DNA from: an uncultured Chlamydiae bacterium
Lineage (GTDB): Bacteria > Chlamydiota > Chlamydiia > Chlamydiales > Parachlamydiaceae
Length of the DNA stretch: 64,000 nucleotides
Assembly (NCBI GenBank): GCA_963754655.1
Contig: CAVWGN010000001.1
Span: forward strand, 1,056,001-1,120,000
Direction: 5' to 3'
Shown: positions 44,650-49,739 of the stretch, in pieces
Numbering within the stretch: position 1 is the stretch's first letter
Layout: every line of letters starts with the position of its first letter
Notes under the pieces: model-generated
The model's database searches: none
The model's input: only the letters and a program-made list of their open reading frames with translations
Told to the model about the DNA's origin: nothing
Program-made: the position numbers and the translations under genes

Positions 44650-47022
44650 TTAATTTTTCATGCCATTTTGTTGGGGTAACGCTAAAGCTTTTTTAAACAT
44701 AGCTGCAGCTTCCTGGAATTTTCCTTCCTGGCTTAAAGTTTTGGCATAATGGCTGACAGTAAAAAGATCTTGTTGTCCCCCAGGTAGATCTAAGGCTTTT
44801 TTAAATTCCGCTGCAGCCTCCACGAGTTTCCCTTGTAAGCGTAAATTTTCGGCATGGCGGCTAACAAGGAAAGGATATTGCTGTGCATTGGTTAGAGCTA
44901 GAGCTTTTTTAAATTCAATTTCAGCTTCCTCGAATTTTTCTTGCTGGCTTAAAGTTTCGGCATAACTGCTGATAATGCTAAGATTTTGTTTTCCTTGAGG
45001 TAGAGCTAAAGCTTTTTTAAATTCAATTGCAGCTTCCTCGAATCTTTCTTGTCGGCGTAAATTCATTGCATAACTTATGACAGAGAAAAAATCTTGCTGT
45101 CCTTGAGGTAGAGCTAGAGCTTTTTTAAATTCAGCTTCAGCTTCCTTTAATTTTCCTTGTAGGCTTAAAATTTGCGCATAACCGCTGACAACTCCAAGAT
45201 CTTGTTGTCCTTGAGGTAAAGCTAAAGCTTTTTTAAATTCCGCTGTAGCCTCCTTAAATTTGCTTTGCCCACCTAAAGTTGCGGCATAACCGTTGACAGC
45301 GAAAGGAAATTGCTCTCCATGAGGTAAAGCTAAAGCTTTTTTAAATTCAATCGCAGCCTCTTCGAGTTTTCCTTGCTGGCGTAAAGTTTCCGCATAACCA
45401 CTGACAGGAAAAAGAGATTGCTGTCCATGAGGTAAAGCTAAAGCTTTTTTAAATTCAATTGCAGCTTCCTCGAGTTTTCCTTGCTGGCGTAAAGTTTCCG
45501 CATAACCACTGACAACGATAAGATCTTGTTGTGCTTGAGGTAGAGCTAGAGCTTTTTTAAATTCAGCTTCAGCCTTTTTGAGTTTTCCTTGTCGGCTTAA
45601 CGTTTCTGCATAACGGCTGATAGCGAAAAGATCGTGCTGTCCTTGAGGTAGATCTAGAGCTTTTTTAAATTCAGCTTCAGCCTCCTCTAATTTTCCTTGC
45701 TGAAGTAAATTTTCGGCATAAACCCTGATAGTGAAAAAATCTTCTTTTCCTGTATTCATCGCTAAAGCTCTTTTAAATTGAGCTTCAGCTTCCTTAAATT
45801 TTCTTTGCTGATATAACGTTACTGCATAACGACTGATAGTGAAAAAGTACTGTCCATTAGATAGTGCTAAAATTTTTTTAAATTCAGCTGCAGCTTCCTC
45901 GACTTTTCCTTGCTGACGTAGATTTTCGGCATAACGACTGGCAGTGAAAAAGTATTGCATTCCTTGAGCTAGAGCTAAAGCTCTTTTAAATTGAGCTTCA
46001 GCTTCCTTAAATTTTCCTTGCAGACGTAAATTTTCGGCATAACCACCAATAATGAAAGAATTTTCTTGTCCTTTAGGTAGAGCTAAAGCTCTTTTAAGCT
46101 CAACTTCAGCTTCTTGGAATTTTTCTTGCTGGTTTAAAATACGCGCATAACGCCCAATAGTAACACTATCGTGTTTTCCTTCAGGTAAAGCTAAGGCTTT
46201 TTTAAATTGAGCAACAGATTCCTCAATTTTTTTTTGTCGATATAAAGTTTCTGCATAACCACGGACAGTGAAAAAATCTTGTTGTCCATTAGGCAGAGCC
46301 AAAGCTTTTTTAAATTCAGTTGCAGCTTGCTCTAACCGTTTTTGCCGGCTTAACATGTCGGCGTAACGGCTGACAGTGAAAAGATCTTGCTTTCCCTGAG
46401 GTAGGTCCAAAGCTTTGTTAAATTGAGCTACAGCTCGCTTAAAGATTGCTTGTTGACTTAAAGTTGCAGCATAATGGCTGACAGTGAAAAAATGTTGGTT
46501 TCCATCAGGTAGAGCTAAAACTTTTTTAAATTCTGCTGCCGCCTTTTCAAGTTCCCCTTGCTGGCGTAACGTCTCAGCATAACGGCTAACAGTGAAAAGA
46601 TTTTCCTGTCCTTTAGGGAGAGCTAAAGCTTTTTTAAATTCAGTTGCAGCTTCCTCAAAATTTCCTTGCTGGCGCAACGTTTCGGCATAACGGCTGACAG
46701 TGAAAAGATCTTGCTGTCCGTGAGATAGGGCTAAAGCTTTTTTAAATTCAGCTTCAGCTTCCTGAAGTTTTCCTTGAAGGCGTAAAGTTTCAGCATAACG
46801 ACTGGTAGAGACAAGATTTTGCAGAGCCATGGCTTGTGTTTGTACTTGGAAAATTGTATTATTATTTAGAAGCTGATGGCGCTCTAATAAATTAGACCTG
46901 AATTCTTGAGAAGGTTGCTCTGTTTGATGATGTATTTTTTGTCTTTTTTTAGGAGGCTCAAAAGATATTTCATAATCATTTGAATTAAACCGTGGCGAAT
47001 TAACAAAAGAAATAGAGTTCAT
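44650..47022 (-). CDS. TPR-like 36-aa repeat protein with an NLS-like motif
   Basis: Repeat DLFTVSRYAETLRQQGKLEEAAAEFKKALALPQGQQ; start MNSISF placed by homology with its partner. Confidence 0.9.
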   Translation of the reverse strand: MNSISFVNSPRFNSNDYEISFEPPKKRQKIHHQTEQPSQEFRSNLLERHQLLNNNTIFQVQTQAMALQNLVSTSRYAETLRLQGKLQEAEAEFKKALALSHGQQDLFTVSRYAETLRQQGNFEEAATEFKKALALPKGQENLFTVSRYAETLRQQGELEKAAAEFKKVLALPDGNQHFFTVSHYAATLSQQAIFKRAVAQFNKALDLPQGKQDLFTVSRYADMLSRQKRLEQAATEFKKALALPNGQQDFFTVRGYAETLYRQKKIEESVAQFKKALALPEGKHDSVTIGRYARILNQQEKFQEAEVELKRALALPKGQENSFIIGGYAENLRLQGKFKEAEAQFKRALALAQGMQYFFTASRYAENLRQQGKVEEAAAEFKKILALSNGQYFFTISRYAVTLYQQRKFKEAEAQFKRALAMNTGKEDFFTIRVYAENLLQQGKLEEAEAEFKKALDLPQGQHDLFAISRYAETLSRQGKLKKAEAEFKKALALPQAQQDLIVVSGYAETLRQQGKLEEAAIEFKKALALPHGQQSLFPVSGYAETLRQQGKLEEAAIEFKKALALPHGEQFPFAVNGYAATLGGQSKFKEATAEFKKALALPQGQQDLGVVSGYAQILSLQGKLKEAEAEFKKALALPQGQQDFFSVISYAMNLRRQERFEEAAIEFKKALALPQGKQNLSIISSYAETLSQQEKFEEAEIEFKKALALTNAQQYPFLVSRHAENLRLQGKLVEAAAEFKKALDLPGGQQDLFTVSHYAKTLSQEGKFQEAAAMFKKALALPQQNGMKN

Positions 47023-49739: not shown

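Follow-up and report, generated by a model that had tools for sequence, protein, structure and literature searches.

The TPR gene pair at 44650-49739 of the window (the whole stretch of 64,000 nucleotides analysed here) is a clean natural inverted gene duplication with a mobile hairpin repeat as its mirror line. The explanation we tentatively favour is that the repeat element already lay upstream of a TPR gene and that an inverted copy of the gene and its upstream region was then made across the element. The pair is a single clear case and not a general route by which genes are multiplied.

Anatomy of the TPR gene pair

The two TPR genes are divergent (head to head) about a shared spacer of 455 nt (47023-47477), and self-comparison of the genome gives the pair as one minus-strand match (C1 1100786-1105726, 80.3% over 4,990 nt), the homology of the arms ending 2-3 nt past each stop codon. 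In the left gene (Pfam TPR_12, E=7e-48), where the longest listed ORF extends to 47076 (808 aa), tandem repeat analysis with TRF (period 108) found approximately 19.9 units of 108 nt (36 aa), and within each gene the units, about 19-20 per gene, are 72-74% alike. The nearest relative of the right gene in the genome is the left gene, with 87% identity across the N-terminal 93 aa, compared to 34-40% for three other paralogues. The features of the locus and of the related sites in the window are collected in Table 1.

Table 1. Features of the TPR locus and related sites (positions in the window)
Feature	Position	Strand	Remarks
Left TPR gene	44650..47022	-	Conserved start 47022, set by alignment to the right gene
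Right TPR gene	47478..49739	+	753 aa; ~18.9 tandem 108-nt units (ORF list, Pfam, TRF)
High-identity tract, left half	45866..46862	-	997 nt, 89% complementary to 47635-48631
High-identity tract, right half	47635..48631	+	Mirror partner of 45866-46862
Left non-coding arm (presumed left-gene promoter region)	47023..47157		Mirrors 47337-47477
Axis element, modular palindromic repeat copy	47158..47336		179 nt, internally deleted (family matches)
Right non-coding arm	47337..47477		Mirrors 47023-47157
Y1 (IS200/IS605-type) transposase gene-interior remnant	49741..49802	-	62 nt; between right TPR stop and kdpD stop, outer end of right arm
Palindromic element with 115-nt C core	15074..15330		257 nt; tail-to-tail junction of two DUF4116 genes, abuts left arm
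Y1 transposase gene 3'-end remnant and downstream hairpin end	17823..17960	+	In DUF4116 spacer
Solitary module-A copy near family consensus	36715..36792	+	Family matches; served as probe of relatives

The first-pass annotation had described the whole intergenic region as an imperfect palindrome with the two start codons almost equidistant from the centre of a hairpin at 47180-47313, and both descriptions were borne out. The spacer consists of palindromic arms of 139 nt (88% identity), 81 nt (75%), 57 nt (93%) and 23 nt (91%), and only an asymmetric core of 88 nt (47203-47290) and a patch of 6-7 nt depart from the palindrome. All arm pairs have a common mirror axis at 47246-47250, from which the start codons are 224.5 and 231.5 nt away. 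The alignment of the two non-coding arms has 106 matching positions, 23 that differ and 12 gap columns (Jukes-Cantor distance 0.20, or approximately 18-20% pairwise difference), and the left arm has a single match elsewhere in the genome, which is the opposite arm. The ORF list holds no ORF of at least 60 aa in 47077-47477, and since the promoter scan gave three sites against 3.1 expected, we make no claim of promoters.

The arms are not equally similar along their length. Between 0.3 and 0.7 kb from the axis they are 93-96% identical, up to 1.3 kb 81-92%, and thereafter 67-84%; dS is 0.10-0.15 over the first 300 codons and 0.49-0.68 distally, which makes an approximately five-fold gradient. 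The outward fall in identity noticed at first reading is thus real; its peak is however not at the very centre, as the non-coding arms (about 80% identical) are below the neighbouring coding 5' parts. In the distal arms the in-register identity (75-76%) is the same as the out-of-register identity (74-75%), and the size of 5 kb first given for the duplication therefore overstates the demonstrable copy: the self-match does cover 4,990 nt, but only the inner 2.8 kb (45866-48631, 89%) is above the background of 72-76% between TPR units. An assembly artefact as the source of the palindrome was ruled out, because the arms differ at approximately 20% of positions. At the outer ends (44650 and 49739) no second-junction signature, repeat or microhomology was noticed. 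The Y1 remnant beside the right end corresponds to positions 572-634 in two Y1 loci, with 88.9% identity over 63 aligned columns.

When 43089-52428 was compared as DNA with 30 relatives, both flanking genes (FAD-oxidoreductase and kdpD) were recovered, the TPR part was matched over at most 129 nt, and none of the relatives carries the pair. In three of them (G002, G011 and G015) synteny shows the expected place of the pair taken by other genes or by contig ends, and a search with the first 95 aa of the right gene against proteins of 414-1318 aa gave no match at E<=0.001. KdpD served as query for a metagenome scan, which gave seven loci with nothing close among them, the best being 72% over 97 aa. 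One soil-metagenome run accounted for 18% of the sampled words and may be the source sample, and it therefore lends no independent support to the locus and carries no information on variants; eight pieces from it were listed (from 11 contigs, 125-418 nt), six identical to the window and two differing at 11-16 positions, and they map to both arms, with none crossing the axis and no joints found.

The axis element and its repeat family

The element on the axis was first taken for a REP-like hairpin. It is a member of a dispersed hairpin family, but a composite of 179 nt rather than a simple REP hairpin: module A (47169-47238, +) is followed by module B in inverted orientation (47243-47315) and a short A-type outer end. 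Its stems (47180-47202 and 47291-47313, 23 nt, 91% complementary) enclose the 88-nt asymmetric core as the loop, and the predicted fold as single-stranded DNA is strong (-40.4 kcal/mol, z -7.3; none of 200 shuffled sequences folded as well). Rfam gave no matches at gathering thresholds and none in 47158-47336 at E<=1, RF01687 (Acido-Lenti-1) included.

The 15-nt core of the repeat, with up to two mismatches, occurs in 64 copies per orientation in C1 and in none in 1 Mb of shuffled sequence, and the window has 21 motif sites against 3.0 expected. The modules A, B, C and D are found in approximately 40 arrangements. Of the 223 repeat loci, 220 are intergenic according to the ORF map; this set was obtained with an iterated module-A model that drifted into the hairpin type flanking Y1 genes, and it is therefore heterogeneous. 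Among 14 complete A-terminated copies, four are bordered by a 9-bp direct repeat matching at 9/9 positions and two more at 8/9, while 9/9 is reached by 0.7% of 1,000 random pairs. The family of the axis element is dispersed and lineage-specific, and its behaviour, with target duplications of 9 bp, is that of a MITE.

The age of the axis copy was estimated from a separate single-seed search, which gave 52 near-full copies of module A. The axis copy is the most diverged of the 52, with 72.5% identity to the family consensus compared to a median of 86%; the argument presumes equal neutral rates and a single source sequence, and copies more diverged than this would escape the search. Together with the divergence of the non-coding arms and the proximal dS, this indicates that the element is no recent arrival, and by appearance it predates the mirrored DNA on its two sides. 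The arms are in register from the gene bodies via the spacer up to the element ends, and 9 of the 10 bases directly abutting the element are complementary across the axis, with no unique spacer between. By simple arithmetic, centring of a 179-nt element within 2 nt in a 455-nt spacer would happen by chance in approximately 2% of placements.

From these observations we infer an order of events in which the element came first. A lineage-specific TPR gene would have started with a palindromic mobile repeat upstream, and a DNA strand ending at or inside the element would have folded back on its inverted ends, or switched template there, and then have been extended along the gene. The element's asymmetric interior would have stayed as the unpaired centre with the flank mirrored outward from the element ends, and a second join at the 3' end of the gene would have closed the copy. 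Later, the part near the axis may have stayed similar or been re-homogenised by gene conversion from arm to arm, with the distal TPR units drifting to the background level of the family, and a state lacking the hairpin nuclease SbcCD would have let the palindrome persist. Stems of 23 nt, an asymmetric loop of 88 nt and a strong single-strand fold are what fold-back at a pre-existing inverted repeat predicts, and by the divergence argument the mirror arms do meet at an older inverted repeat with an asymmetric loop. Against this explanation, the exact arrangement was found once, and the locus has two copies only, with no third direct copy. In addition, a single event is expected to leave uniform divergence, so the five-fold gradient in dS requires added conversion or turnover of distal units.

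The same junction could also have arisen in the opposite order, if an inverted pair almost without a spacer was formed first and the repeat entered its centre afterwards, with the tip of the hairpin or cruciform as the preferred target. The family is mobile with its 9-bp target duplications, and the flanks of the axis copy have, by eye, a 7/9 direct match at the family-typical offsets, which could be a decayed target duplication from such a central insertion and counts to that extent against fold-back, although it lies in quasi-palindromic sequence. Insertion sequences that have inserted into REP sequences are described in the part of the literature consulted (PMC8450116), and the apparent absence of SbcCD would allow a spacer-less palindrome to survive. 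We nevertheless consider later insertion unlikely, as the axis copy is further from its consensus than the arms are from each other and the bases abutting it match in inverted (9/10) and not in direct orientation (5/10, by eye). A chance strike at the exact centre is also improbable, and of the 223 loci only the axis locus lies in mirrored unique DNA.

The annotation had further suggested that the duplications might be nick-primed, and linked the repeat to a Y1 transposase remnant. A remnant is indeed present (17823-17960; 84-89% over 102-138 nt to two Y1 loci, and 78% over 27 aa in tblastn), and the one at 49741-49802 is a second. The genome has seven intact IS200/IS605-type Y1 genes, some of them bracketed by CTGAA-loop hairpins, other hairpin families of the genome match Y1 flanks, and the ends of Y1 genes have spawned other palindromic families. 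These observations would suit a junction made by a transposase, in which a Y1/HUH enzyme or an enzyme of the family's own nicks the element end and the folded 3' end primes copying of the flank; so would the finding that the arms begin at the element ends and not inside the stems, the 6-7-nt patch in the outer stems being less alike than the arms beyond. However, the axis element had no BLAST match at E<1e-3 to any of the seven Y1 loci within 400 nt of the genes, and its family leaves 9-bp target duplications, which Y1 transposases are not known to do. Among the papers listed, none was seen to describe a chromosomal inverted duplication made by an enzyme of this kind. The proposed link of the axis family to a Y1 transposase is not supported, and we regard a transposase-made junction as very improbable.

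Inverted pairs and palindromes in the genome

The seeding of fold-back duplications by hairpins had been put forward as a repeat-driven mechanism for amplifying presumed effector genes. Among 129 adjacent paralogue pairs, 119 are tandem and 10 inverted, and accordingly there is no general mechanism of this kind. Enrichment of the repeat at inverted pairs was nevertheless observed when checked genome-wide: a repeat module lies between 4 of the 10 inverted pairs, compared to 64 of 737 non-paralogous spacers of inverted orientation (Fisher p=0.009) and 6 of 119 spacers of tandem paralogues (p=0.003), where the p values are nominal with n=10 and the length control is partly circular. With the motif of the first-pass annotation the counts were 5/10 against 122/737 and 14/119.

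Among the inverted paralogue pairs the element is exactly on the axis, with abutting arms, in the TPR pair only. In the other three module-bearing pairs it lies 30, 41 and 64 nt off the axis and the arms are not mirrored up to both of its sides. One other pair has a palindromic spacer (C1 429793-430790, 75% over 1,035 nt); its centre is AT-rich and no such repeat element is present there, which also speaks against a general mechanism. Mirrored flanks were found at 9 of the 223 repeat loci, of which five are C-module loci inside multi-copy long palindromes, two are A+A- loci with highly repeated flanks (74-273 BLAST hits) and another is the 15074-15330 element, where the mirrored flanks consist of the element's own ends. 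Only the axis locus mirrors genome-unique DNA, with two hits per flank (self and partner). What stands of the seeding idea is one exact case, with an element that looks older and unique DNA mirrored from its ends, and the nominal enrichment. It is rather doubtful that in this intracellular bacterium, apparently without SbcCD, hairpin repeats recurrently turn strands back, possibly after a nick by a hairpin-specific transposase, and so produce head-to-head and tail-to-tail pairs of host-interaction genes, which would let gene families grow by a repeat-seeded route in addition to tandem duplication; the TPR pair would then be the freshest example and the three or four off-centre pairs older, eroded ones.

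The pair at 15074-15330 had been read as F-box genes with the same repeat at their axis. In Pfam the genes match DUF4116, and no family of F-box proteins reaches E<=0.001; the element has its own axis at 15202, that is 64 nt from the axis of the gene arms (15266.5). It does stand at the junction, since the right-hand gene has its family-typical 3' flank in 15331-15458. The ends of this element match the flanks of a Y1 gene at C1 2542103 (96.6% over 59 nt).

The predominance of tandem pairs would also suit a different history, in which tandem duplication came first with an element in each spacer and recombination between elements then inverted one gene. Tandem arrays with one element of 266-293 nt per spacer exist (for example C1 1895598-1925200), and palindromic elements such as these can pair in both orientations. 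Such inversion would account for elements at both head-to-head and tail-to-tail junctions, and the arms would start at the element ends. It predicts, however, a second, outer element, and no family module was detected at 44550-44650 or at 49740-49803, the right outer end having only the remnant of an unrelated Y1 gene. Nor was an element or motif found upstream of the inverted DUF4116 gene at 13124, so two traceless losses would be required, and we find this route improbable.

The three large palindromes of the window, in which the same repeat was at first thought to lie, have only the short CCTGAAGG-type hairpin motif in common with the axis element; by sequence they form a separate family, which is made up of end sequences from another Y1 gene. 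Sub-threshold matches to RF01687 (35.2-36.4 bits against a gathering score of 37) occur only at 25638-25801, 36903-37066 and 55259-55313. Self-comparison gave 97 local palindromes in the genome. No match to SbcD was found in the genome, and SbcC gave only N-terminal matches of 22 bits against a cut-off of 478; the genome thus appears to be without the SbcCD hairpin nuclease, and such palindromes could persist. The genome tolerates approximately 100 palindromes and seems to lack the nuclease that destroys them.

Relation to known systems

Gene conversion from arm to arm is known in large palindromes such as those of the human Y chromosome. It would explain why the TPR arms are most alike near the axis, although here conversion is suggested by the dS gradient only, for which turnover of the distal TPR units is an alternative. 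Homogenisation of the arms of inverted repeats by template switching is described in the parts of two sources consulted (PMC8604942, PMC13100816).

The axis family resembles the REP/REPIN-RAYT systems and BIMEs, as these are presented in the consulted parts of PMC3116915, PMC3337134 and PMC2817692, in being short, GC-rich extragenic hairpins with many copies, inverted pairs and mosaics, and some of the genome's Y1 genes are likewise bracketed by hairpins with the same loop motif. In contrast to these systems, the A/B modules found in the axis element flank none of the Y1 genes, the axis family has 9-bp target duplications, and there are seven Y1 genes and not one per family. With bacterial MITEs (PMC3184786, in part) the family shares small size, absence of coding sequence, terminal inverted repeats, target duplications, many intergenic copies and a stable fold; it differs in being strongly modular and nested, and the axis copy is without a clear target duplication. 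The large palindromes of the window have CCTGAAGG-type loops in common with the axis element, whereas RF01687-like sequence is found in the palindromes only, and the two are separate sequence families. In environmental chlamydiae, expansion of gene families has been described via tandem arrays, in a paper whose main text lacks the words "inverted", "palindrom" and "transposase" (PMC4209131), and none of the papers listed brings Parachlamydiaceae together with palindromic or IS200 terms.

Should the element have been the turning point, the locus would connect the evolution of a bacterial gene family with a mutational mechanism that is known chiefly from selections in the laboratory and from rearrangements in humans, and with 179 nt plus flank it would offer a test object of construct size. 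If it was not, the locus still marks how the mobile palindromes of this genome choose their sites.

Tandem inversion duplication in Salmonella was reportedly described by Kugelberg et al. in 2010. Inverted repeats as sites of template switching, and inverted duplications of the fold-back type, are an established class, as far as the consulted parts of the sources go (PMC8604942, PMC13100816, PMC7202029, PMC3907307), and the latter are described also in human genomes (PMC3907307). Compared to these, the TPR pair is fixed, old and natural and not a selected laboratory amplification, it has two copies where tandem inversion duplication has three, and its turning point would be a mobile repeat of 179 nt instead of a short chance quasi-palindrome. 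The likeness to fold-back and tandem inversion duplication lies in the junction itself: the mirror copies meet at a pre-existing inverted repeat, its asymmetric centre corresponds to the loop, and the arms start there.

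The mirrored TPR gene pair

In this genome (3.16 Mb, two contigs, 38.8% G+C), two divergent TPR genes sit between an FAD/BBE oxidoreductase gene and kdpD, and the best named-record matches of the neighbouring KdpB are Candidatus Protochlamydia (76-78% identity) and Parachlamydiaceae metagenome bins. Each TPR gene consists of an N-terminal region of about 60 aa and then about 19-20 tandem 108-nt units that are 72-74% alike. The two are mutual closest relatives: their N-terminal 93 aa are 87% identical, as opposed to 34-40% to the three further paralogues in the genome. Each protein has a basic cluster near residue 25, PPKKRQK in one and PPTKRQK in the other, that resembles a classical nuclear localisation signal, and such a putative signal would fit action in a eukaryotic host.

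The first-pass annotation described the pair as a 5-kb inverted duplication. Genome-wide self-comparison returned a single match, on the minus strand, 4,990 nt long and 80.3% identical. The palindrome is real, and every arm pair has a common axis at 47246-47250. An assembly artefact was ruled out as its source because the arms differ at about one-fifth of positions. Homology stops 2-3 nt past each of both stop codons, and the spacer, thought to be palindromic throughout, is mirrored for the most part, with an 88-nt core and a 6-7-nt patch unmirrored. The outward fall of identity was borne out: the first 300 codons show a synonymous divergence of 0.10-0.15 and the last 300 one of 0.49-0.68, and the non-coding arms of the spacer give JC 0.20. 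Distally, the arms are 75-76% identical in register and 74-75% out of register, not above the identity to the arrays of other paralogues (77-80%), so what can be shown to be a young mirror copy spans the inner 2.8 kb (89%), not the full 5 kb. The original observation was largely right, but its extent and three side claims needed correcting.

Features of the window and of the genome contig (prefix C1, whole-contig numbering; other positions are those of the window)
Feature	Position	Remark
DUF4116-repeat gene array	13124-25488	five genes, one plus strand, four minus; 9-13 repeats each
Element between tail-to-tail DUF4116 genes	15074-15330	palindromic
C core	15129-15243	115 nt, asymmetric; 79 other C1 places
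GC-rich CTGAA-loop hairpins	17980, 20596, 23013	downstream of several DUF4116 genes
Mobile-family palindromes	25500-25939, ~36860-37110, 55029-55436	
ORF	37479-38561	weak match to eukaryotic RGS (regulator of G-protein signalling) domain PF00615, E=3.4e-5, 24.7 bits, cut-off 23.9
FAD/BBE oxidoreductase gene	43089-44549	one side of TPR pair
TPR gene (-)	44650-47022	
Inner mirror copy	45866-48631	
N-termini with basic clusters	46900-47022, 47478-47600	
TPR-pair spacer	47023-47477	455 nt
Axis element	47158-47336	179 nt
Unmirrored core	47203-47290	
TPR gene (+)	47478-49739	
Y1 remnant, TPR pair	49741-49802	
kdpD	49804-52428	other side of TPR pair
Head-to-head palindromic pair	C1 429098-431851	Y1-transposase remnant just outside one arm (C1 428562-428819, 428598-428662)
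Palindromic spacer, same head-to-head pair	C1 429793-430790	
Elements with perfect 9-bp direct repeats	C1 696232-696741, 1429830-1430342, 1434164-1434673, 1694399-1694562	palindromic
885-nt composite	C1 1026594-1027478	41 nt off its pair's axis; almost fills its spacer
D-type element	C1 1421556-1421693	30 nt off its pair's axis
Tandem gene array	C1 1895598-1925200	repeat in seven successive spacers

The axis element and its repeat family

What had been seen as a hairpin at the axis is a 179-nt member of a dispersed repeat family with 81 loci in single-sequence nhmmer searches. When four modules (A, B, C and D) were searched for iteratively, 353 module copies at 223 loci emerged, 220 of these loci being intergenic on a crude ORF map; because the iterated module-A model had strayed to a neighbouring type of hairpin, the 223 loci are a heterogeneous superfamily, with a short GC-rich hairpin and a CTTCAG/CTGAAG loop in common. 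The usual complete family copy reads A-B-(C)-B'-A' (primes mark inverted copies). The axis copy has the order A, B', short A' end, an arrangement found once, which we interpret as an internal deletion that kept both ends. Its single strand folds strongly (-40.4 kcal/mol, z -7.3) and has no match in Rfam. In 30 relatives, module-A and C-core probes gave no more than marginal short matches; the family therefore expanded in this lineage. In one tandem gene array, seven successive spacers each contain all or part of a 266-293-nt A-B-B'-A' element, and the repeat has been co-amplified with the genes. The C core shows very strong conservation (for most of its 80 copies, nhmmer E is about 1e-27 to 1e-33) and is often paired 430-550 nt apart, direct or inverted, or abuts 0.4-kb palindromes; a small RNA, or the terminus of some larger element, are possible identities.

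The axis repeat had been called REP-like, and its shape is indeed REPIN-like. Besides fragments, the genome carries seven Y1 transposase genes that are intact, and every one of these passes the NCBI IS200/IS605 model (63.5-148 bits, cut-off 55). Inverted hairpins with the CTTCAG/CTGAAG loop motif bracket some of them, and their ends are building blocks of other palindromic families in the genome. The three 0.4-kb window palindromes, formerly placed in the hairpin family, have the loop motif in common with it but are by sequence another family: they match, at about 90% over 96-107 nt, the ends of a Y1 gene located at C1 395750. For the element between the DUF4116 genes the match is to the flanks of a second Y1 gene, at C1 2542103 (96.6% over 59 nt). 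The axis element matched none of the seven Y1 loci. At the ends of complete copies of its family, 9-bp direct repeats agree at 9/9 in 4 of 14, against 0.7% of random controls. With two features of REP/RAYT membership failing in this way, the axis element is better filed as a modular MITE. Perfect 9-bp direct repeats around four palindromic elements elsewhere on the contig suggest fairly recent transposition by a staggered-cutting enzyme.

Order of events at the axis

We tentatively propose that the axis hairpin repeat, old enough and precisely placed, was the turning point of the inverted duplication, a reading that we hold with some doubt. Rival routes, such as inversion after tandem duplication or insertion into the centre of an existing pair, may account for the arrangement instead. 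Three observations favour an element present before the mirror copy. Of 52 near-full module-A copies, the one at the axis has diverged furthest (72.5% identity to the consensus, median 86%), and the mirrored DNA beside it has only about 18-20% pairwise difference. The mirrored flanks begin right at the element's ends, without a spacer, and are unique in the genome except for each other; among the nine repeat loci of 223 with mirrored flanks this is the only one in unique DNA, five being C-module loci within multi-copy long palindromes, two A+A- loci whose flanks have 74-273 BLAST hits each, and one the element between the DUF4116 genes, where the mirrored flanks are its own ends. The bases abutting the axis element match in inverted orientation at 9/10 and directly at 5/10, unlike a fresh insertion of its family. 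This argument is weak in view of a 7/9 direct match, seen by eye in quasi-palindromic sequence beside the copy at family-typical offsets. The synonymous gradient counts against a simple single duplication event, and later arm-to-arm conversion near the axis, or quicker turnover of distal units, would be needed to produce it. No trace of a second junction of the inverted copy was found, nor, in the collections searched, the ancestral state in a close relative.

Non-overlapping local palindromes with arms of at least 200 nt number 97 in the genome, and two mobile families of 0.4-0.9 kb account for 67 and 20 of them; palindromes in the window have Acido-Lenti-1 matches just below the Rfam threshold. 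A search of the genome for SbcD found none, the same search being positive in 13 of 14 control genomes, and for SbcC there were 22-bit N-terminal matches only. It seems that the SbcCD hairpin/palindrome nuclease is missing, a loss that would explain palindrome accumulation, and its apparent absence weakens the case that a spacer-less ancestral palindrome could not exist.

Generality across adjacent paralogue pairs

The crude ORF map yields 129 pairs of adjacent paralogues, of which 119 are tandem, 8 divergent and 2 convergent. The predicted excess of the repeat between inverted pairs is present at a nominal level with ten pairs: a module lies in 4 of these 10 spacers, compared with 64 of 737 non-paralogous divergent or convergent spacers (Fisher p=0.009) and 6 of 119 tandem paralogue spacers (p=0.003), and in 76 of 1,362 other tandem spacers. 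The length-adjusted expectation is 0.94 (P(4 or more)=0.006); spacer length includes the elements themselves, which makes this adjustment partly circular. With the motif of the first-pass annotation the counts are 5/10, 122/737 and 14/119 for inverted, non-paralogous and tandem paralogue spacers, respectively.

Among the inverted pairs, only the TPR pair has an element exactly on its axis. The element between the DUF4116 genes (the former "F-box pair"), reported as axial, is located at the junction but 64 nt off the axis; the left arm stops at 15074, and the 128-nt stretch on the other side of the element is the right-hand gene's usual 3' flank. In the sole other pair whose spacer is palindromic (75%), the centre is AT-rich and lacks such an element. 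A Y1 remnant lies just outside one arm in both palindromic head-to-head pairs (2/2), which may be coincidence.

A general repeat-driven engine for amplifying effector genes is thus unsupported, with 119 of 129 adjacent pairs tandem and an exact axial element found once, and since inverted pairs are rare, inverted duplication is not the main growth route of these gene families. The repeat-seeded fold-back interpretation is partly supported, by the age and exact placement of the axis repeat, in one clear case. By this reading the TPR pair, centred on a MITE-like element, belongs to an established type of rearrangement (an inverted repeat prompting fold-back or a template switch), of which it would be a natural and fixed example.
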